Both the position numbers and the translations under genes were made by a program. A DNA stretch of 64,000 nt from a virus (taxonomy: Duplodnaviria > Heunggongvirae > Uroviricota > Caudoviricetes), in IMG/VR virus record IMGVR_UViG_3300043172_001414; one strand, 5' to 3'. Under the pieces are notes generated by a model. That model was not told the DNA's origin. It saw only the letters and a program-made list of their open reading frames with translations, and ran no database searches. Positions within the stretch are counted from its first letter, which is position 1. Every line of letters begins with the position of its first letter. Below are positions 34 through 8,607 of the stretch, one piece after another.

Positions 34-228
34 ATGACTGTTAATAACTCTGCACTAAGGGAGCCTATAAGATATGTTATTAGAAAGGCTAGAAAACTTA
101 CAGAGTTATTTTCATGTTACAATTGTCAAAGTAAAATTCCGTTTAAACGATACTACCCCGTGAAATCTCATTTGGGTGGTGTCGTTAAAGGAAAAAAATA
201 TTGTATTAATTGTATAAAGAATACTTGA
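34..228 (+). CDS. small CxxC...CxxC zinc-finger-like protein
   Basis: ORF track; CYNC and CINC motifs; follows an in-window stop of an upstream gene. Confidence 0.6.
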   Translation: MTVNNSALREPIRYVIRKARKLTELFSCYNCQSKIPFKRYYPVKSHLGGVVKGKKYCINCIKNT

Positions 229-253
229 CAATACTTAACTAATTAACTATCTT
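225..253 (+). promoter_or_regulatory. early sigma70 promoter P1 with operator-like dyad
   Basis: TTGACA(225-230)-N17-TATCTT(248-253); TAACTAATTAACTA at 236-249. Confidence 0.85.
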
Positions 254-260
254 ATATAAT

Positions 261-407
261 ATGAATGAAGACTATAAATTACACTATGAATATGAAGAAG
301 GCGATGAATATTGCTGTGCTTGTGGTGGGTTAATGGATTGGTGTTCATGTTGTGAAATGTGGCTCAATCATTGCTGTAATGATGATGTTGAATGCCAATG
401 TTATTAA
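261..407 (+). CDS. 48-aa Cys-rich microprotein (not in ORF track)
   Basis: MNEDYKLHYEYEEGDEYCCACGGLMDWCSCCEMWLNHCCNDDVECQCY; 10 Cys; fills the gap between P1 and the next RBS. Confidence 0.6.
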   Translation: MNEDYKLHYEYEEGDEYCCACGGLMDWCSCCEMWLNHCCNDDVECQCY

Positions 408-421
408 TCGATGGAGAAAAT

Positions 422-919
422 ATGATAACTGTACTTAACAAAATTTTAGAAGTATCAAACGACCCAACTATTGAAGCCCTTGTAGAAATACTCAAAGGTA
501 AAGTTGATGCGATTGATGCTGACATAAAAAGTATCGAGAATTGGAGCGGTGAAGCTTATCAAACTGGTGATGACATATACAATGCTGTTGATAGTATTAC
601 TGCTATCACACATGGTGCTGTTGTTAAAATTTCAGTGATACATTTTTTAGCTGACTATGTTTTCAAGCACATACCAAAGTTTGAAGAACAAGTTGATGCA
701 GACTTTGAAAAATTTCAGAAACAACACCAATTTTCTTTTCCTACTTTAGGAAAATTGTTTGAGCACCACAAAGACATTCCATTTGTGGATGATTCTGACA
801 AATTGATTATTAACAATTGGGCGAATGTTGACGACATGTTGAATAGGTCTGATGATAACCGTACATACGTTTCTGTAAAAGAACAACACAAAGATGTTGC
901 TATTCTTTGGGAATGGTAA
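422..919 (+). CDS. hypothetical protein
   Basis: ORF 392-919; GGAG RBS favours the ATG at 422. Confidence 0.8.
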   Translation: MITVLNKILEVSNDPTIEALVEILKGKVDAIDADIKSIENWSGEAYQTGDDIYNAVDSITAITHGAVVKISVIHFLADYVFKHIPKFEEQVDADFEKFQKQHQFSFPTLGKLFEHHKDIPFVDDSDKLIINNWANVDDMLNRSDDNRTYVSVKEQHKDVAILWEW

Positions 920-927
920 TATTTAAC

Positions 928-956
928 TTGACAGCTCTTAGTTAATTAACTATCTT
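928..956 (+). promoter_or_regulatory. early sigma70 promoter P2 with perfect 14-bp palindrome
   Basis: TTGACA-N17-TATCTT; TAGTTAATTAACTA at 939-952. Confidence 0.9.
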
Positions 957-984
957 TATTAAAGACCTCAACGGAGAAACTATT

Positions 985-1749
985 ATGAGAATTTGTAAAC
1001 ACTTAAACGACCTACAAAACACTGGTGTAGATTTAGAATCACACGAAGGCAGTATACACGGCACTCTAATTCAAGAAACAAATGAAACTGTTGATCTGTG
1101 CGACAAGTGTTTAGATGATGCTGTTATCACGAACCACTTTAAGAACAGCTATTCTACATGGTCTGCTATCAGAGAATCAGAAGAGTGGGGCTTGGTAGGT
1201 GAGCAAGAGACCCATACCCCTACGCCAAGGAAGTTTACAAAAACAGTATACTATCAAGTTACTGAAGCTCAAGTTACTCATTCATGGGACGTTACAGGAA
1301 CTTCAGATGAAGACATTCTTAAAAAAGCTAAAGATATTCATATTGACATTTATCTTCACGATCCAAATAGTCCCGATGGTGGCCACTCTGGAAAAGAAGA
1401 TGCCGGATGTGATAGTTGTAACATTGAAGTTGCATTTGATAAGGCAGACCTTAAGAAGCTATCTCAAACAACTATCATTGAAGGCTTGGTACAGCGACTA
1501 CATGATGTTTGTCCAGACGATGAAGGGCTTTACCTAAAGGGTTCAAAAATTTGTGACATGAAAGAATTGCAAAAAAAGTATCTGTCAATTTTTTATGTTG
1601 TAGAAACTGATGTAAATTTTGAGATAAGATTTACTGGTGAATTTACTACTACTAATGATGAAGTTGTCGGCATTGTGTTCAATAAAGAAGATGCTGATGC
1701 ATTTGCTGATATGAAACAACTTCAGTATGATAAATCTGGGAAAATCTAA
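985..1749 (+). CDS. hypothetical protein
   Basis: 254-aa ORF with GGAG RBS directly after P2. Confidence 0.8.
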   Translation: MRICKHLNDLQNTGVDLESHEGSIHGTLIQETNETVDLCDKCLDDAVITNHFKNSYSTWSAIRESEEWGLVGEQETHTPTPRKFTKTVYYQVTEAQVTHSWDVTGTSDEDILKKAKDIHIDIYLHDPNSPDGGHSGKEDAGCDSCNIEVAFDKADLKKLSQTTIIEGLVQRLHDVCPDDEGLYLKGSKICDMKELQKKYLSIFYVVETDVNFEIRFTGEFTTTNDEVVGIVFNKEDADAFADMKQLQYDKSGKI

Positions 1750-1758
1750 TCTTTTACA

Positions 1759-1787
1759 TTGACAACGCTTAGTTAATTAACTATCTT
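1759..1787 (+). promoter_or_regulatory. early sigma70 promoter P3 with perfect 14-bp palindrome
   Basis: TTGACA-N17-TATCTT; TAGTTAATTAACTA at 1770-1783. Confidence 0.9.
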
Positions 1788-1812
1788 TAATAATAGATAA
1801 CAAGGAGATCAT

Positions 1813-2004
1813 ATGAAAATACAAACTGTTAAATGTGCACAATGTGGATTAGTAGTCAATTATGACAATGCATGTATATTTTCTGATGGTGAATATTTTG
1901 TATGTGACCCTTGTGTTGATGAAGAATGTCCAATCTCTTATGATTATGAGCAAGAGAGTAACGACTATGGCGTTGTCGAGAAGGAAGTAAAATCATGCAC
2001 TTAA
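1813..2004 (+). CDS. small CxxC zinc-binding protein
   Basis: CAQC...CDPC; AAGGAG RBS. Confidence 0.75.
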   Translation: MKIQTVKCAQCGLVVNYDNACIFSDGEYFVCDPCVDEECPISYDYEQESNDYGVVEKEVKSCT

Positions 2005-2255
2005 TTGAAGTAGTAAATGCAAACGGTGAAGCCTTAGGGCTTTACATGGCTGAAGGTACTGAAACAGTAGCTGAAGTGACGGAAGCGATTAAAACTGCTT
2101 ACGAGTACGCAACAGTGAAAAAACAGCACTATCTCGAAAGTAACTATGAAGAAGAGATAGACGTTCAAGCTGAAGCAGAATATACTTTAGGTTTCCGCAA
2201 TATCAAGCGTGTATCAATAGATAGGCATACGGTAAAGGTTAACGATGAAAACTAA
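1995..2255 (+). CDS. hypothetical protein
   Basis: 86-aa ORF overlapping both neighbours in an operon. Confidence 0.75.
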   Translation: MHLIEVVNANGEALGLYMAEGTETVAEVTEAIKTAYEYATVKKQHYLESNYEEEIDVQAEAEYTLGFRNIKRVSIDRHTVKVNDEN

Positions 2256-2463
2256 AGTAGTCAAGTGTCCGCACTGTGGTAATGACAAGCGTACTCAAGG
2301 GGTCAGCGCCCCTATGTTCAGTATGTCTCATGGTGGCGTTGAGTGGTGTGTGGCGTGTTTAAACCCTGACTGTCATAAAGAGTTTATAGTTCATTTTGAG
2401 CTGTACAAAATTACAAAAACTAGTAAACAGTTCCCAATGACAGAACCAAAGATGGTTTTTTAA
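2245..2463 (+). CDS. zinc-ribbon protein
   Basis: CPHC...CVACLNPDC. Confidence 0.75.
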   Translation: MKTKVVKCPHCGNDKRTQGVSAPMFSMSHGGVEWCVACLNPDCHKEFIVHFELYKITKTSKQFPMTEPKMVF

Positions 2464-2488
2464 AAAGGTGGTTAATTCCATCTTTTTT
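2462..2488 (+). terminator. intrinsic terminator
   Basis: AAAGGTGG-TTAATT-CCATCTTT stem (one G-U pair) followed by T-run. Confidence 0.7.
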
Positions 2489-2490
2489 TG

Positions 2491-2519
2491 TTGACAAGAC
2501 TTAGTTAATTAGCTATCTT
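2491..2519 (+). promoter_or_regulatory. early sigma70 promoter P4 with dyad
   Basis: TTGACA-N17-TATCTT; TAGTTAATTAGCTA at 2502-2515. Confidence 0.9.
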
Positions 2520-2547
2520 ATATAATAGATAAGCAACGGAGAATAAC

Positions 2548-2811
2548 ATGGCAAACATTAATAAAGTAGTAAATGTAGAACTAAAGCACATGGACTGGGA
2601 GATGCTAAGCGGTCAAAAGCTTATTATACTTGAGTTGTTGAGTAGATCTAATGACTTGACTAAAGCGGAGGATGATACTCTTAATGGGATAATTCATTTT
2701 TTAGATGAAGTTCAAGATCAAGCTGCTGAACAGATACCACATGATGATGTGTTCTTTTCTCCCGAAAAACAGTCTTTATTAGCTGAAAAGATACGAGCTG
2801 AACACAAGTAG
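2548..2811 (+). CDS. hypothetical protein
   Basis: 87-aa ORF with GGAG RBS after P4. Confidence 0.8.
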   Translation: MANINKVVNVELKHMDWEMLSGQKLIILELLSRSNDLTKAEDDTLNGIIHFLDEVQDQAAEQIPHDDVFFSPEKQSLLAEKIRAEHK

Positions 2812-2848
2812 CTTTAGTTATATTTTATGAATAATATTAACTAAAGTA

Positions 2849-2877
2849 TAGACAAAAATTAACTAAATAACTATCTT
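2849..2877 (+). promoter_or_regulatory. early sigma70 promoter P5 with dyad
   Basis: TAGACA-N17-TATCTT; TAACTAAATAACTA at 2860-2873; extra inverted repeat CTTTAGTTA/TAACTAAAG at 2812-2846. Confidence 0.8.
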
Positions 2878-2900
2878 TTATTAAAACTTAAGGAGAACGC

Positions 2901-3461
2901 ATGGGATATACTACTGATTTTGAAGGCAAAATGACTATAACACCTGCACTGGAACCACAACAAGTAGTGTTTCTTAACAAGCTTGCGGATACTCGTAGAA
3001 TGGCTAGAAATGTTGACGAATCAATTTATGGAGTACAGGGCGAGTTCTATATTGGTAAGGGTTTTGCAGGTCAAGACAATGAACTCAATATAGCTGATTA
3101 TAATCAACCCCCTAGAACACAACCTAGTCTTTGGTTAAGGTGGGAAATTTCTGAAGATGGTACAACTTTAGAGTGGGGTGGTAGTGAAAAGTTCTATGCT
3201 TATACTGAGTGGATAGAATACCTCATAACAAAAGTTTTCATGCCTTTAGATAGGCAGTTAGATGGTACGATTCTCTACTCTGGTGAAGAAACTGGCGACG
3301 CTGGTAAGATCATTGTTACCAGCAATAAGATTTGTGTTGAGACGTGGAATGAGGGTACTTCATTTATCGAGCCAAAGAAAAACTTTGATGCAAAAGTTCT
3401 TCTTAAGGCTATCGAAGCACAAGTCAAAATTGAAACCGAAACAAAGTTTATTGTAGGATAA
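2901..3461 (+). CDS. conserved phage hypothetical protein (MGYTTDF...EKFY family)
   Basis: motifs MGYTTDFEG, QPSLWLRW, GSEKFYAYTEWIEYLI recognised from phage hypotheticals. Confidence 0.75.
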   Translation: MGYTTDFEGKMTITPALEPQQVVFLNKLADTRRMARNVDESIYGVQGEFYIGKGFAGQDNELNIADYNQPPRTQPSLWLRWEISEDGTTLEWGGSEKFYAYTEWIEYLITKVFMPLDRQLDGTILYSGEETGDAGKIIVTSNKICVETWNEGTSFIEPKKNFDAKVLLKAIEAQVKIETETKFIVG

Positions 3462-3462
3462 A

Positions 3463-4542
3463 TTGATGGAAGCTAAGAAATTTGAACCTTTACACATTGA
3501 AGAGATATGCGAATACTTTAAGGATAAAGGTATAGATATTATAGCTCAAATGGATGAAGCTCTTCCTGCAATATCAGATGAAAGGGCCGATGCGTTTGGC
3601 AACAAATTTGTCAATGAATCATACCCTACTGACATTAGTCGTTTGCTGTTTTGTAGTTTTGCAATGATCAAAGTATATGGGGATATGTTTTTTCATAACA
3701 ATCCATTGTTTGAATCTACTTTTGCATCAATATATCTGGGTATGCGTAAAGCAAAAGTGTTTAATATAACTGAAGACTTATTCTTTAAGCTTGTTAATAC
3801 AGAGATAAAAAATATCAATCCAGAATTAATTAAAATGCCTTTTGATAACATGGTGTTGTCTATCCCTTCACTAGAGGTTCAAGCTAGTGGTGATTTAGTT
3901 ATGGTTTTTAAAGACATTGTATTGACATACAATGAAGCTGAAAACTCTATCCTTGCCCAATCGTTCGGAGAAGGGCGAAAGGGCGATCAACGTATGTTGG
4001 AACAGTCTGGAATGTCATTAAGACTTAACTGTACTTCAGTTGAAGATATGATCCAACTAAGTCTTGACGATGTATTATTAGCCCGTAAAACATCTAAAGA
4101 TAAAAAAATGACCGACATTGACTTTAATGATGACGAAACAATATACAGAAGGCATTATAGTTTCATTATCAATTCTCTGTTATATATCTGCTCAATGGAA
4201 TCGTTTAATCATACCCCTGCTAAGCGATATGTTACTAAGAAGAAAAAGACTAAAGCTAATCGGTTAAAAGAAGCAACTAAAGTAGCTGAAAAGAACAAAG
4301 ATTTGTCTAAGATAGGTCGCATTGTAATAGGTTCTAACAGACGTTTGACTGATGATGAGTATAGTTGCCTGACAAACTTAAAGAACGTTGTGTCGTGTCC
4401 CAAATGGCTTGTAAGAGGTCATTGGCGTAGTCAAGCTTGTGGTATTAAAATGACTGATCGACGTATGAAGTGGATCGAGCCATACACAAAGGGTAAGGGC
4501 ATGCTAGAAGAGATTAACCAGAAACAATATTTAGTAAAGTAG
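3463..4542 (+). CDS. phage protein with C-terminal VRGHWR motif
   Basis: WLVRGHWRSQACG...WIEPYTKG preceded by a basic patch. Confidence 0.75.
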   Translation: MMEAKKFEPLHIEEICEYFKDKGIDIIAQMDEALPAISDERADAFGNKFVNESYPTDISRLLFCSFAMIKVYGDMFFHNNPLFESTFASIYLGMRKAKVFNITEDLFFKLVNTEIKNINPELIKMPFDNMVLSIPSLEVQASGDLVMVFKDIVLTYNEAENSILAQSFGEGRKGDQRMLEQSGMSLRLNCTSVEDMIQLSLDDVLLARKTSKDKKMTDIDFNDDETIYRRHYSFIINSLLYICSMESFNHTPAKRYVTKKKKTKANRLKEATKVAEKNKDLSKIGRIVIGSNRRLTDDEYSCLTNLKNVVSCPKWLVRGHWRSQACGIKMTDRRMKWIEPYTKGKGMLEEINQKQYLVK

Positions 4543-4547
4543 GGATT

Positions 4548-4928
4548 ATGTCATGGGATGATATTATAATTGGTGAACCTAACGGTAGAAAGATGAATTC
4601 GGCAGGTGGTGTTAGTCATGAGATAACAACTATTTCACAAAACTCACAAAGTTACTGGTGCGATGATTGTATTCTTGATTTAGGTATCACCATCTATAAG
4701 GATACTAAAGAAGGTGAACACCTTACTGGCCTGTTAAATAAGAATGTTAAGGTTAATGCCATACAAGAGTGGTTGGATCGTCTTATATTGAGAAAAATAA
4801 CTCCATCGAAATTATTACCTCGCATCAAAGTTATAATGAGCAACGTAAAAAATGAAGCCTATACTGATGGGTGTGATGACAAATTAGAAGAAATACAAAA
4901 AGTTTTAGGGATACGTAAATTCTATTGA
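4548..4928 (+). CDS. hypothetical protein
   Basis: 126-aa ORF in operon. Confidence 0.75.
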   Translation: MSWDDIIIGEPNGRKMNSAGGVSHEITTISQNSQSYWCDDCILDLGITIYKDTKEGEHLTGLLNKNVKVNAIQEWLDRLILRKITPSKLLPRIKVIMSNVKNEAYTDGCDDKLEEIQKVLGIRKFY

Positions 4929-4953
4929 CATACTTTAGTTAATTAGTTAACTT
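4925..4953 (+). promoter_or_regulatory. early sigma70 promoter P6 with dyad
   Basis: TTGACA-N17-TAACTT; TAGTTAATTAGTTA at 4936-4949 (exact reverse complement of the P1 site). Confidence 0.85.
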
Positions 4954-4980
4954 TAATAATAGATAATTAAAGGAGTAAAA

Positions 4981-5838
4981 ATGCCAAATCACATAACAAA
5001 CATACTTAAACTATCTGGTGAACAGATCGAAATTGATAAACTGGTCGCTCAATACAGTACTCACTATAAGTCTGAACACGATAGAGGTTATGACGAACGT
5101 CTTATATACAAAAAGATTGGTACGGATCATGGTTATGGGTGGCTTGACGAAAAGACTAAGGAGTTTCAAATTAAGGGTGGTGATACAGCTATAGGTGTTC
5201 CCGAAGATTATGAGCCTCTTATGACTGAAGCATGGACACGTTTTCCAGATTTCAATAAAATTATTCCTATGCCAGAAGAGCTTAATATCTCTTCTGGATC
5301 ACAGGGTGAACTTGGGCAGTATATCATAAATGGTACTGGTGGGAGTACATTTTTAGGTGATGAAGAATTGCGTAAGCGGTTTGCGGGATTGTCTGAAGAA
5401 GACCAACAAAAAGCTTTAAAGGTTGGTCAACAATACATTGACAATAAGGCAAAATATGGTCATACAACATGGTATGATTGGGCTATTAAAAATTGGGGTA
5501 CTAAGTGGAATTCATACTCATGTAAAAAACATGATTCTGCAACCGAAATTATTTTTGAAATTCAAACTGCATGGAGCAGTGTGCCAGACATGATTGGTAA
5601 AATGGCTGAAAAATTTCCAACTGTATTAATTGAATATGTATATGCAGATGAGGACACTGGTTGCAATTGTGGTCGCTTAACGTATGATGAAGGTAAATTA
5701 TCAACTGAAGTTATTCCAGAAAATTGTTCTATTGAGGCTTACGAGCTTGCGTTTGAAGTTATTCCCAGTAATAAAGATTACTATGAATTGGTAGATGGTG
5801 AGTACAAATACAAAGAAGATGAAGAGGATGATGATTGA
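4981..5838 (+). CDS. DUF1281/YubB ferredoxin-like domain protein
   Basis: MPNHITN start; WYDWAIKNWGTKWNS and FEIQTAWS motifs. Confidence 0.75.
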   Translation: MPNHITNILKLSGEQIEIDKLVAQYSTHYKSEHDRGYDERLIYKKIGTDHGYGWLDEKTKEFQIKGGDTAIGVPEDYEPLMTEAWTRFPDFNKIIPMPEELNISSGSQGELGQYIINGTGGSTFLGDEELRKRFAGLSEEDQQKALKVGQQYIDNKAKYGHTTWYDWAIKNWGTKWNSYSCKKHDSATEIIFEIQTAWSSVPDMIGKMAEKFPTVLIEYVYADEDTGCNCGRLTYDEGKLSTEVIPENCSIEAYELAFEVIPSNKDYYELVDGEYKYKEDEEDDD

Positions 5839-5975
5839 TTTGCAAAGTATGTAAGGCAGACTTCAATGTAAGTGAATCAATTAACAAGTATGGGAGCAAG
5901 CCGTTTATACACGATACTTGCTCCACTATTTGTTACAAAACGGCTAGAGCAGGAAAACACGATGAGAAAAAGTAA
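5835..5975 (+). CDS. 46-aa zinc-finger microprotein (TTG start; not in ORF track)
   Basis: MICKVCKADF...TCSTICYK; overlaps upstream stop, GAGGA upstream. Confidence 0.55.
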   Translation: MICKVCKADFNVSESINKYGSKPFIHDTCSTICYKTARAGKHDEKK

Positions 5976-6330
5976 ACGGATATATGCGAAAATTAATGCA
6001 GAAAAAAGCTTTGCTAAAAAGTCTGCATTGGAAAAGTGTCACAAGCTTTTAGCTAAAGCAGAAGAACTATCGAAGAAACATGACTTTGAACTATCATGCA
6101 TCTTTGGTAAAGACGGTTGGAATACAGAATATATTAATCTCAATATTGAAACTACTAATAACTCATTGCAGAGTATTATGTATGCTTTGATTGCAATAGA
6201 GTTTCACCATGAAAATGTTATGGATGTTAAAGATGTACAGGATGTAGTCAGCCAAACTATTAAGGCACTCGGAGACTATACAAATGATAAGATTAACGAA
6301 ATGGAAGACACTCTTAATTTGGCTAACTAA
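5962..6330 (+). CDS. hypothetical protein
   Basis: ORF 5872-6330; AGGA RBS favours the ATG at 5962. Confidence 0.7.
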   Translation: MRKSKRIYAKINAEKSFAKKSALEKCHKLLAKAEELSKKHDFELSCIFGKDGWNTEYINLNIETTNNSLQSIMYALIAIEFHHENVMDVKDVQDVVSQTIKALGDYTNDKINEMEDTLNLAN

Positions 6331-6451
6331 AGTATCTATACAGGAGGTAACACACGTTATTAACCTGTTAGGTGTGAGGTATATAAAGCAATATAGATCG
6401 GTCATTAGCGCAGAAATATTAGCTAAGAAACTATATAACTTAGAAAATAAC

Positions 6452-6480
6452 TTGACAGATATTAGTTTTATAGTTATATT
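6452..6480 (+). promoter_or_regulatory. sigma70 promoter P7 (degenerate dyad) upstream of XRE gene
   Basis: TTGACA-N17-TATATT; spacer contains TTAGTT half-site. Confidence 0.7.
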
Positions 6481-6566
6481 TGATAGTAAGAAAGTTATTA
6501 TTAAATGTAATAAGATGGAGTTGGAGCACATTTATACGAGAGAACAATTCAACAAGGAATTTGAAA

Positions 6567-6965
6567 ATGGCTAAAGCTAAAACTAAGATAAAAAGAAACA
6601 AGGTTGAGTACGGTGTTGAATATGATTTTGGTACTATCCTTAAAAAGATTCGTATCAATCGAGGTTTAACACAAGAAGAGGTTGCTGATGCTATACACGT
6701 CCAACCTCCAACATTGTCAGCATATGAGAACGATAAGCAGAAACCTTCTATTATGATTTTAGTAGACTTGGCAAATGTTTATAATGTCGATGTGAATGAA
6801 CTTATTGGGTACATCACTAAGACTTCAGAGAAATCAAAAATTAACAATCTATACGCACAGCTATCAACTAAAAACAGAAAAACTGTTGTTGATCAAGCGG
6901 AATACCTTCTGTTTAGACAAGAAGGTAACGGAGAATTACTTAACTACAATACAAAAACACAATAA
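6567..6965 (+). CDS. XRE/Cro-C1-type helix-turn-helix transcriptional regulator
   Basis: LKKIRINRGLTQEEVADAIHVQPPTLSAYENDKQKPSIMILVDLANVYNVDVNELIG; AAGGA RBS. Confidence 0.9.
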   Translation: MAKAKTKIKRNKVEYGVEYDFGTILKKIRINRGLTQEEVADAIHVQPPTLSAYENDKQKPSIMILVDLANVYNVDVNELIGYITKTSEKSKINNLYAQLSTKNRKTVVDQAEYLLFRQEGNGELLNYNTKTQ

Positions 6966-6984
6966 CAAATAAAAGGAATGCCAT

Positions 6985-7701
6985 ATGAGTAAAAAGAATA
7001 TGAAATACATTACAAAGATGCTTACATGCTATCAAATTATAAGGACTATTGAAGGTAAGCAGATTTACTTCGGAAGTGTGAATCATAAGAAAGACAACGC
7101 ATTGAAACAGGTTCAACGTATGCGTGATGTTACTGTTGCTATGCTTGATGCAGGGAATGATGTTGATGTGATCAAAACACAGATTAGATCAATGGACTTC
7201 TCTAAGTTAAAAGTGGCAAAGCTTTTCTTAGAATCGTTAAGTGAGAAAGTTGCTGAAGCTGAAGGGTCTGCAAGCTCTGCAGATGAAACTTCTGATTATT
7301 CAGATTTTATACCACCCGAAGAAATCCTAGCGACTGAAACACAATCTACCAGTGCCGACTCTGGTGTGTTAGAGTCTGAGAATATTGATGTTACTGCAAA
7401 TACAGAAACTCAACTGGTATCTTTTACAAGTCTCAATGCTGAAAGTCTCAAACAATTCTCAAACATGTATGCGACCCTTAAGTCTCTGGATATGTCAGAA
7501 CAGGATACTAAGCGTTTTGATGAAATCTTTGATGACCTCGACACCATCAATGGTACTATAGACCGTCTTAACAGTCGTCTGGAAGAACATTTACCTCATG
7601 CTGAACTACTATTCTATAAGAATGAAGCAAAGGTTCTGGCGAAGGATAAGAAGTCACTTCAAAATCGACTAACACGAGCTGAAAAAAAATTAGCTGTGTA
7701 A
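6985..7701 (+). CDS. AP2-like DNA-binding domain plus coiled-coil protein (paralog 1)
   Basis: MKYI..YQIIRTIEGKQIYFGS...RD pattern; heptad C-terminus; similar to 7966-8538. Confidence 0.55.
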   Translation: MSKKNMKYITKMLTCYQIIRTIEGKQIYFGSVNHKKDNALKQVQRMRDVTVAMLDAGNDVDVIKTQIRSMDFSKLKVAKLFLESLSEKVAEAEGSASSADETSDYSDFIPPEEILATETQSTSADSGVLESENIDVTANTETQLVSFTSLNAESLKQFSNMYATLKSLDMSEQDTKRFDEIFDDLDTINGTIDRLNSRLEEHLPHAELLFYKNEAKVLAKDKKSLQNRLTRAEKKLAV

Positions 7702-7702
7702 T

Positions 7703-7731
7703 AAAAGGGAGTGCTTCGGCACTCCTTTTTT
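7703..7731 (+). terminator. intrinsic terminator
   Basis: GGGAGTGC-TTCG-GCACTCCT followed by T-run. Confidence 0.9.
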
Positions 7732-7746
7732 CGTTTAAGGTATAAT

Positions 7747-7836
7747 ATGTCTATTAAAAAAACTCCAAAGAAAATCAAAGAAACTGTATTACATTGGTAT
7801 TTAGAGCTTAAAAAGCTGAAAGACAGCGAAAAATAA
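7747..7836 (+). CDS. 29-aa basic peptide
   Basis: MSIKKTPKKIKETVLHWYLELKKLKDSEK; AAGG upstream. Confidence 0.35.
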   Translation: MSIKKTPKKIKETVLHWYLELKKLKDSEK

Positions 7837-7897
7837 TATGTACTATTTCATCTTAATAATAAAAATGCATAAAAAATATTATTTCTGTAAATAATAT

Positions 7898-7926
7898 TTG
7901 ACTTCTTAGTAATTATATTCTATCTT
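7898..7926 (+). promoter_or_regulatory. sigma70 promoter P8
   Basis: TTGACT-N17-TATCTT; TTAGT half-site; TATCTTT...AAAGATA dyad over the -10/+1 region. Confidence 0.75.
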
Positions 7927-7965: not shown

Positions 7966-8538
7966 ATGAGCGCATCTAACAAATCAGAAAACGCAATCGC
8001 CTCCCAAGAAAAAAAAGCAAAAAAAGACCCTACGATGAAATATATTGTAGACTGGAATGGTAAGTTTCGTATAATTAAAAAAGTTGGCAAAACTCAAGAT
8101 TATTTTGGTACAATGGAAACAATCGAAGAAGCTAAAACGAGAAGAGATGCAGTTGTTCTCATGGCTGATCAAGGCTATAGCGCACAAGAGATCAAGGCTC
8201 AGTTTGCTATAGGTTCGGATTACAGCAAGCCTGTATACAGCATGCCTAAAGGTGAAGGACGTTTCGATCTTAGCAAATTCATGGCGTTATACGAGCTTAC
8301 AAAAGGTTCTGATAGCTTCACCAAAGAGCATAAAGAGTTAATTAATTCAGTAATGCGTAAAAAGATTGAATCTGATAAGCTTGCTAAAGAGATTGAAGAA
8401 ACCCCTAGTAGCATTGTCGCTGTTATGGAAGATATTAGTCGTGCTGATGAACATGACACAATGAAGGCTAATATTGCAAAGCTTGAAAAAGAAAACAGGT
8501 CTTTAAAGAAAAGTCGGGCTCAAAAGGCTGTTGCTTAA
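7966..8538 (+). CDS. AP2-like DNA-binding domain plus coiled-coil protein (paralog 2)
   Basis: MKYIVDWNGKFRIIKKVGKTQDYFGTMETIEEAKTRRD matches the AP2/MBD-like pattern. Confidence 0.6.
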   Translation: MSASNKSENAIASQEKKAKKDPTMKYIVDWNGKFRIIKKVGKTQDYFGTMETIEEAKTRRDAVVLMADQGYSAQEIKAQFAIGSDYSKPVYSMPKGEGRFDLSKFMALYELTKGSDSFTKEHKELINSVMRKKIESDKLAKEIEETPSSIVAVMEDISRADEHDTMKANIAKLEKENRSLKKSRAQKAVA

Positions 8539-8555
8539 TAGCAACAACCCTATTG

Positions 8556-8607
8556 AAAAACCCCTGCCCTGTTGACTTAACTATTGATAAATGGCAGGGG
8601 TTTTTTT
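8556..8607. terminator. bidirectional terminator between convergent genes
   Basis: AAAAACCCCTGCC (8556-8568) / GGCAGGGGTTTTT (8593-8605), 24-nt loop. Confidence 0.75.

Follow-up and report, generated by a model that had tools for sequence, protein, structure and literature searches.

A probable family of early-promoter cassettes with a conserved spacer in a distant T4-like phage

Introduction

What is a promoter for when it recurs ahead of one group of small genes after another and carries an inverted repeat in its spacer at copy after copy? The question is raised by a 64,000-nucleotide (nt) stretch of viral DNA, referred to here as the window, which corresponds to the minus strand of an IMG/VR virus record of 211,777 bp (IMGVR_UViG_3300043172_001414, Caudoviricetes). 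Within the first 8 kb of the window a first-pass annotation had listed eight promoters of the form TTGACA-N17-TATCTT, numbered P1 to P8, and had proposed that they form an early regulon switched off by one dimeric phage protein bound to the spacer. As a fallback it had suggested a cassette system like the PeSL elements of T4-type phages, and it is this fallback that fits the anatomy of the unit best. The units probably serve a distant T4-like phage as its early promoters, each of them a portable PeSL-type cassette of regulatory sequence.

Judged from its sequence, the phage is an uncultured and very distant member of the T4 group with a genome of 212 kb or larger, and its terminase is less than 40% identical to any GenBank phage terminase. 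The record is rated 93% complete, and it is indeed incomplete because a 285-amino-acid (aa) early protein encoded in the window is found, in identical form, on another contig of this phage that is 248,963 bp long.

The promoter family

A promoter of this type is present at all eight of the positions first listed, namely 225, 928, 1759, 2491, 2849, 4925, 6452 and 7898, with the qualification that the motif is exact only at the first four. The others each depart from it by one hexamer base, such that the -35 element reads TAGACA at 2849 and TTGACT at 7898, and the -10 element reads TAACTT at 4925 and TATATT at 6452. The four exact matches to TTGACA-N17-TATCTT in the window compare with 0.01 expected by chance. 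As had been described, each promoter heads one to four genes, seen as small open reading frames (ORFs) on the + strand, and P1 to P8 appear to be cassette-form early promoters of the sigma70 type that belong to a single coherent class.

The figure of eight turned out to be an artefact of the window. A scan of the whole genome gives about 44 copies, all on the + strand of the window, which extend over 37 kb. The first lies 29.6 kb before the start of the window and the last at position 7898; the window contains the last eight of these units. All are direct repeats, and the median distance between neighbours is 703 bp. When one mismatch is allowed, 43 matches fall on the strand of the array and one on the other, compared with none and three for a backwards control. 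The array ends at a strong terminator (8556-8605, + strand, -14.6 kcal/mol, z -6.5) that closes the + strand early region, and the genes beyond it lie on the minus strand.

The leaders of the units fall into sub-types that are clustered along the array. As a separate observation, judged by eye, the leader of one sub-family of about eight units (window coordinates -21325 to -14059) ends in ACGGTAGGAGTGCCAAAC-ATG and could form a 4-bp hairpin (GGUA/UGCC) with the GGAG in its loop.

Anatomy and conservation of the unit

The consensus of the unit is g-TTGACA-nnnn-TTAGTTAAT(T/A)A(A/G)CTAT(A/C)TT-TAATAATAGATAA, followed by about six variable nt, GGAG and ATG. Read from its 5' end, the unit consists of an optional terminator hairpin with a T-run, G-TTGACA, four free bases, a 13-bp spacer block, the -10 element TAT(A/C)TT and a start region, TAATAATAGATAA. 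If positions are numbered from the first base of the -35 hexamer, the free bases occupy positions 7-10, the spacer block positions 11-23 and the start region positions 30-42. A G stands directly before TTGACA in 27 of the 44 copies. Counted from the -35, the ribosome site (GGAG or AGGAG) lies at 44-49 nt in most copies and the start codon at about 56-62 nt, with the ATG about 7-10 nt after GGAG and roughly 20-25 nt after the predicted start site.

Conservation within this unit is sharply partitioned. Pairwise identity across the copies is 0.89 in the -35 hexamer and 0.87 in the -10 hexamer, and the spacer block, at 0.79, comes close to both, followed by the start region at 0.60. The four bases directly after the -35, in contrast, are at 0.28 and the flanks at 0.29-0.37, against a random expectation of 0.27. 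These values bear out the view that the spacer is conserved in its own right and is not a by-product of recent duplication. The 42-bp block as a whole holds 44.7 bits, of which the hexamers contribute 17.8, the spacer block 16.4 and the start region 9.7. The genes that follow share no such likeness. Among 38 units the first ORFs are mutually unrelated, save for one homologous pair, and identity between units, which reaches 97% in the 30 nt before the ATG, drops to 0.2-0.4 inside the genes. Because the flanks and the four free bases are at random identity and the 38 first genes are unrelated, it is likely that selection maintains the unit as a portable regulatory cassette.

A very different explanation would be that the spacer has no sequence-specific job at all, and that recombination or gene conversion between neighbouring cassettes homogenises the copies after duplication. 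The direct orientation and close spacing of the units would suit such pure concerted evolution, as would the spatial clustering of the leader sub-types and their high identity right up to the ATG; moreover, PeSL-mediated recombination has been demonstrated in the phages RB49 and phi1 (PMC2839356). Conversion tracts, however, would be expected to homogenise the four free positions too, and these lie at random identity inside the block. The sole paralogous pair of first genes is informative in the same way: the two proteins have diverged to 43% aa identity, yet their promoters still share 17 of 19 bases at positions 11-29, and all four free positions differ. The free positions within the block, together with this old pair, exclude the possibility that the spacer is conserved simply because the units were duplicated recently or underwent gene conversion throughout. 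A further argument comes from distant phages, described below, that have the same spacer core despite a terminase only 35-37% identical, and pure concerted evolution is consequently considered very improbable.

Distant megaphages that share the core

Promoters of a related type are found in four other phages, G001 (277 kb), G005 (422 kb, with terminal repeats) and the fragments G003 and G004. The terminases of G001 and G005 are 35-37% identical to that of the phage studied here, and no terminase was found in G003 or G004. In each of the four there are between 18 and 62 promoters that read TTGACA-N7-TTTAATTA-N2-TATATT. An ATAGA-type start region, GGAG and ATG come after this, and the copies are mostly on one strand near a genome end. 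What these promoters have in common with the present array is TTAATTA at -20 to -14, which corresponds to the right half and core of the spacer block, together with the -10 element. Since the left TTAG is missing, the megaphage spacers are not extended dyads and hold no 14-bp dyad. Unlike the phage studied here, these uncultured gut and rumen T4-like megaphages have conserved bases of their own, AAAC, right after the -35.

A scan of 185,579 prokaryote genomes gave arrays in two metagenome-assembled genome (MAG) bins only, Bacteroidaceae RGIG6563 and Alistipes HGM05544. Megaphage-type promoters were also noted at loci L033-L039 (in G001, G003 and G005) and at L044, L058 and L079 (in MAG JAFXNA01), and such contigs had been binned in a 'Bacteroidaceae' MAG from sheep reticulum and an 'Alistipes' MAG from human gut. 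The array contigs in these bins are probably mis-binned phage DNA. The Bacteroidales labels of the bins were considered as evidence for the host and set aside, as the strong GGAG ribosome sites speak against a Bacteroidota host.

A proposed mode of action

In the reading preferred here, that of portable early-promoter cassettes, the units would be read by the host sigma70-type RNA polymerase right after infection, and the approximately 27 bits beyond the two hexamers would make of them a separate class of very strong promoters. For the TTAATTA core at -20 to -14 the most likely role is to tune polymerase binding or opening, or else to serve a class-specific, non-dimeric factor; a role as the operator of a symmetric repressor is less likely. 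The palindrome is completed by the TTAG extension (-25 to -22), which is specific to this lineage. A polymerase-level or class-marking role is favoured because the shared core sits where the spacer is approached by sigma region 3 and the beta' zipper. Sigma70 is known to sense the spacer near -18 (PMC3130263). Finally, about 44 direct copies set some 700 bp apart, with clustered sub-types, would be natural substrates for the gain, loss and homogenisation of cassettes by recombination.

Several observations weigh against this reading. Most copies have no strong upstream hairpin: one of -15 kcal/mol or lower with a T-run lies directly upstream in about 9 of the 44 units, or in 12 if the threshold is set at -8, and upstream sequences have, on average, the same folding energy as the surrounding region. 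Other TTGACA promoters in the genome lack the spacer block, so that polymerase has no general need of it, which leaves room for a class-specific factor. Moreover, a relative of intermediate distance that includes the early region was not found in the collections searched, and the case for recombination at the units therefore draws on their layout only. Lastly, the 14 bp of the spacer consensus form a perfect palindrome whose half-sites are 10 bp apart from centre to centre, which is the geometry on which the operator model is built.

The spacer palindrome

The 14-bp dyad TAGTTAATTAACTA is perfect at 939-952 (P2) and 1770-1783 (P3), as first described, and has two changes at P1 (236-249), one at P4 (2502-2515), three at P5 (2860-2873) and two at P6 (4936-4949), where the 14-mer is the exact reverse complement of that at P1. 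A half-site had also been assigned to P7 and P8; the former does keep one, as the left TAGTT only, but little is retained at the latter. Across the 44 sites an average of 5.5 of the 7 symmetric pairs is matched.

According to the operator model, the dyad is the site of a dimeric phage repressor, for example an XRE-family protein encoded at 6567-6965 or an AP2-like protein, that would, once made, shut the whole early regulon off. The dyad does lie between the -35 and -10 elements, where a bound protein would block polymerase, and in perfect form it is found only within the array promoters. The degenerate spacers, moreover, belong to the promoters of the XRE gene (P7) and of an AP2-like gene (P8), and no components of a T4-style switch were detected that might do the job in another way. 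For AsiA and MotA there was no match in G000, G001, G003 and G005, in searches that were without a positive control because control genomes also gave none; the same limit applies to RegB, for which there was no match in the genome. Sigma70_r2 had no match in the genome either. Even in T4 the shut-off of the early promoters is still unexplained (PMC2988021).

Against the model stands the behaviour of the two half-sites, which are not under equal constraint. C23 is kept in 42 of the 44 copies compared with 30 for its partner G14, position 22 is A or G in a ratio of about 50:50 with no compensating change at position 15, and shuffling the right-half columns among the copies returns the same symmetry score (5.55 versus 5.55). 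The distant megaphages keep the right half and core only, in spacers that are not extended dyads, and they have no detectable homologue of the proposed repressors: none was found for the XRE protein in G001, G003, G004 and G005, nor for the AP2-like proteins in those distant megaphages examined. What is peculiar to the phage studied here comes down to two or three symmetric pairs beyond the self-complementary TTAATTAA core, for which the chance probability is about 0.02-0.07. To our knowledge, there would also be no precedent for a lytic-type T4-like genome with 44 operators that all serve one repressor. The proposal of a single dimeric repressor on the dyad, drawn from the palindromic consensus, is not supported, as only 12 of the 44 sites are perfect and the halves vary independently. 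The repressor reading as such is weakened rather than refuted, and is now considered rather unlikely.

Other structural roles were considered for this part of the unit and discarded. The second dyad, TATCT...AGATA across the -10 element and start site, is seen at P3, P4 and P8 as had been described, and in part at P6, but C27 and G38 vary independently of one another and the dyad was dropped as a constrained element. A hairpin or cruciform role for the spacer palindrome was rejected too, since its folding energy of -1.3 kcal/mol is matched by shuffled sequences and its halves do not co-vary. An alternative -10 element at TAATAAT was rejected, as it would lie 24 bp from the -35.

Candidate regulators

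The XRE label given to the gene at 6567-6965 is confirmed by a Pfam match to HTH_3 (E 7.7e-17). Its product, a helix-turn-helix protein of 132 aa encoded on the + strand, is a candidate regulator. The AP2-like label for the two genes that follow (starting at 6985 and 7966, + strand) has fared less evenly. They encode proteins of 238 aa (6985-7701) and 190 aa (7966-8538) and do share an N-terminal domain of about 70 residues (E 4e-7) with weak structural look-alikes, but a Pfam match to AP2 is lacking, and the 238-aa protein has no Pfam match at all. The look-alikes of the N-terminal domain of the 190-aa protein are AP2-, HNH_3- and integrase-bearing clusters (TM 0.5-0.64), so that a possible AP2/integrase-type DNA-binding fold is regarded as a lead only. 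A third paralogue with this domain was noted in the same genome, at G000:C1:176063-176242, and it is possible that all three are DNA binders.

A hyper-abundant 10-mer

The left half of the spacer block, TTAGTT, is also the 3' end of a 10-mer, TACTTTAGTT, that is the most over-represented word in the genome, with 161 copies in 212 kb compared with about one expected. Its variants TACTTCAGTT (82 copies) and TGCTTTAGCT (39 copies) bring the total to about 280. The copies are on both strands and in coding as well as non-coding DNA, are densest in the early region, and show conservation that stops sharply at the edges of the word. In the window it is found, for example, at 4931-4940 (+) and, as the reverse complement, at 2250-2259, 2839-2848, 4275-4284 and 6325-6334.

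The word is also a component of a second class of promoter, TTGACA-N17-TATACT, in which the 10-mer begins inside the -10 element. These promoters lie upstream of the window on the same strand, at window-oriented genome coordinates 2649, 8555 and 13614, and also at 5714 and 164436. In three copies an inverted word is found 12 bp upstream of the -35, to give the arrangement AACTAAAGTA-N12-TTGACA-N17-TA-TACTTTAGTT. Such a pattern suggests that some factor reads the word on the phage DNA.

It could then be argued that TTAGTT in the early spacers belongs to a system that reads TACTTTAGTT and its variants, with one factor docking both on the early spacers and on either side of the second promoter class. 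The abundance of the three forms of the word and their sharp edges would be in keeping with this, as would the inverted pair that brackets the second class, the 16 copies present in 31.7 kb of the relative G011, and the occurrence of the complete word at positions 7-16 in 9 of the 44 promoters, against an expectation of about 0.2 once the fixed TTAGTT is taken into account. The remaining 35 promoters, however, have only the last 6 bases of the word. Copies upstream of the promoters are only mildly enriched (11 of 44 against a background of 14%) and their spacing is not fixed, and the word is also present in coding DNA and on both strands. This model is viewed as distinctly unlikely. The more specific proposal, that a single phage DNA-binding protein (AP2-like, from 6985 or 7966, or XRE, from 6567) reads both the 44 spacer blocks and TACTTTAGTT, and once made would occupy the promoters and so end the early programme or hand over to the next class, is likewise held to be unlikely.

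The eight units of the window

All the features described here are on the + strand. The P1 cassette (225-266) has its TTGACA at 225-230 and its -10 element, TATCTT, at 248-253. Its predicted start coincides with position 261, where a Cys-rich ORF of 48 aa (261-407) has its ATG; this ORF has no Shine-Dalgarno sequence, and its mRNA may be leaderless. The P2 cassette (928-987) opens with TTGACA, has its -10 TATCTT at 951-956 and leads by way of GGAG to the ATG at 985 of a 254-aa ORF (985-1749). The P3 cassette (1759-1815) has a -10 element at 1782-1787, overlapped by the second dyad, TATCT-N8-AGATA (1782-1799), and then AGGAG and the ATG at 1813. Three small ORFs follow it, at 1813-2004, 1995-2255 and 2245-2463.

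The next unit shows the optional upstream part as well. A hairpin with a T-run at 2462-2490 (-9 kcal/mol, z -2.2) adjoins P4 (2491-2519), which is followed by a leader, GGAG and the ATG at 2548 of an 87-aa ORF, and the whole segment, 2462-2550, is to all appearances a complete terminator/promoter composite of the PeSL type.

In the P5 cassette (2839-2903) the word AACTAAAGTA (2839-2848) directly adjoins the -35 element, TAGACA (2849-2854), and the -10 TATCTT is followed by AGGAG and the ATG at 2901. The ORFs behind it are at 2901-3461, 3463-4542 and 4548-4928. The second of these encodes a 359-aa protein that carries PF26125 (AcrVA2-like, an anti-CRISPR family) in the precomputed Pfam annotation of identical contigs, a match that is absent from our own Pfam scan, perhaps owing to a difference in version. 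The P6 cassette (4925-4983) consists of TTGACA, directly followed by the complete 10-mer at 4931-4940, then the -10 TAACTT, AGGAG and the ATG at 4981 of the gene for the 285-aa protein, which belongs to DUF1281_C.

P7 (6452-6569) is of the form TTGACA-N17-TATATT and retains only the left TTAGTT of the spacer block, with a leader of about 80 nt to the XRE gene. A strong intrinsic terminator (7703-7732, -9.9 kcal/mol, z -5.2) lies after the XRE operon. P8 (7898-7968), TTGACT-N17-TATCTT, has a degenerate spacer and a dyad, TATCTTT/AAAGATA, over the -10 element and start site, and is followed by the ATG at 7966. Most ORFs of the window have no Pfam or PHROG function.

Relatives of the phage

The phage is present in JGI sample 3300037234 and in the runs SRR11832401 and SRR11832402, and other samples contain the same phage at 99.95% identity. 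The only closer relative available is G011, a contig of 31.7 kb with a terminase 81% identical, and a search of it for the early region gave structural genes only. Homologues of the 285-aa early protein (41-50% identity) are on contigs that do not have such promoters, and the 359-aa early protein has no relative in IMG/VR. A megablast search of the region against GenBank phages gave no match, and distant blastn searches with single promoter units gave chance single matches only, with no cultured phage that has such arrays. Exact motif scans of IMG/VR and the JGI metagenomes revealed no further carrier of the full motif, and a literature search on the spacer word returned nothing relevant.

Implications

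The feature has overwhelming statistical support and is of an ordinary kind, namely a family of T4-type early-promoter cassettes, and what is unusual about it is the information held in the spacer and the start region. The operator reading and the link with the 10-mer, both unproven, are the only parts that could be new. If an operator-based switch were true, it would bear on early shut-off in T4-type phages, the mechanism of which is open even for T4.

The 44 copies, with four unconstrained inner positions as an internal control, provide a data set on the contribution of the spacer to promoter function, and TTAATTA, which several unrelated megaphages have at -20 to -14, is a candidate spacer element for RNA polymerase or a common factor. 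The consensus can also be used to annotate the early regulon of this phage group.

Comparison with known systems

In being short, hundreds of times more frequent than expected, present on both strands in coding and non-coding DNA, and placed at fixed positions in some promoters, the 10-mer is reminiscent of highly iterated words such as HIP1 of cyanobacteria. The word in this phage differs in that it is not a palindrome. The spacer dyad, for its part, resembles the operators bound by lambda-type repressors (XRE/Cro/CI) in that a dyad consensus lies inside the promoter with half-sites one helical turn apart, and an XRE gene is present at the end of the array. It differs from them in the asymmetric conservation of its halves.

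A closer parallel is provided by the early promoters of T4, which have additional consensus regions and act as 'über' promoters (Hinton 2010, PMC2988021). T4-like early promoters have a G at -36 and a GTT(T/G)AC -35 region, and the GTTGAC form is found in RB49, RB43 and Aeh1 (Nolan 2006, PMC1524935). The present family is similar in that there are dozens of promoters per genome, located 5' of novel ORFs, with a consensus that extends beyond the hexamers, a G at -36 and a -35 of the GTTGAC form. In contrast, it has no TGn extended -10 and its -10 element is weak (TATCTT or TATATT); here the extra information lies in the 13-bp AT-rich spacer block and the conserved start region.

The system that the units most resemble is that of the PeSL elements, described in the T4-type phage pairs RB49/phi1, PST/T4 and nt-1/KVP40 (Arbiol 2010, PMC2839356; Comeau 2014, PMC4122927). 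Three parts make up a PeSL element, namely a stem-loop that is AT-rich or a terminator, a sigma70 early promoter close to consensus, and a Shine-Dalgarno sequence with the start codon, and about 50 such elements lie before ORFans in variable regions (PMC2839356, PMC4122927). Stem-loops between the -35 and -10 elements form a described subclass (PMC2839356, PMC4122927). In the present array a clear hairpin is found in only about a quarter of the copies, and the inverted repeat in the spacer is AT-only and too weak to fold, such that it is conserved as sequence and not as structure. In other respects the likeness is close. The units have a TTGACA-N17 promoter of the sigma70 type, a Shine-Dalgarno sequence and start codon at their 3' end and, in some copies, a terminator hairpin upstream; they number about 44, compared with about 50 in the PeSL phages, stand before small unrelated ORFans, and form direct repeats suited to cassette exchange. 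The cassette organisation of early genes known from cultured T4-type phages would thus appear to extend to a very distant uncultured lineage.

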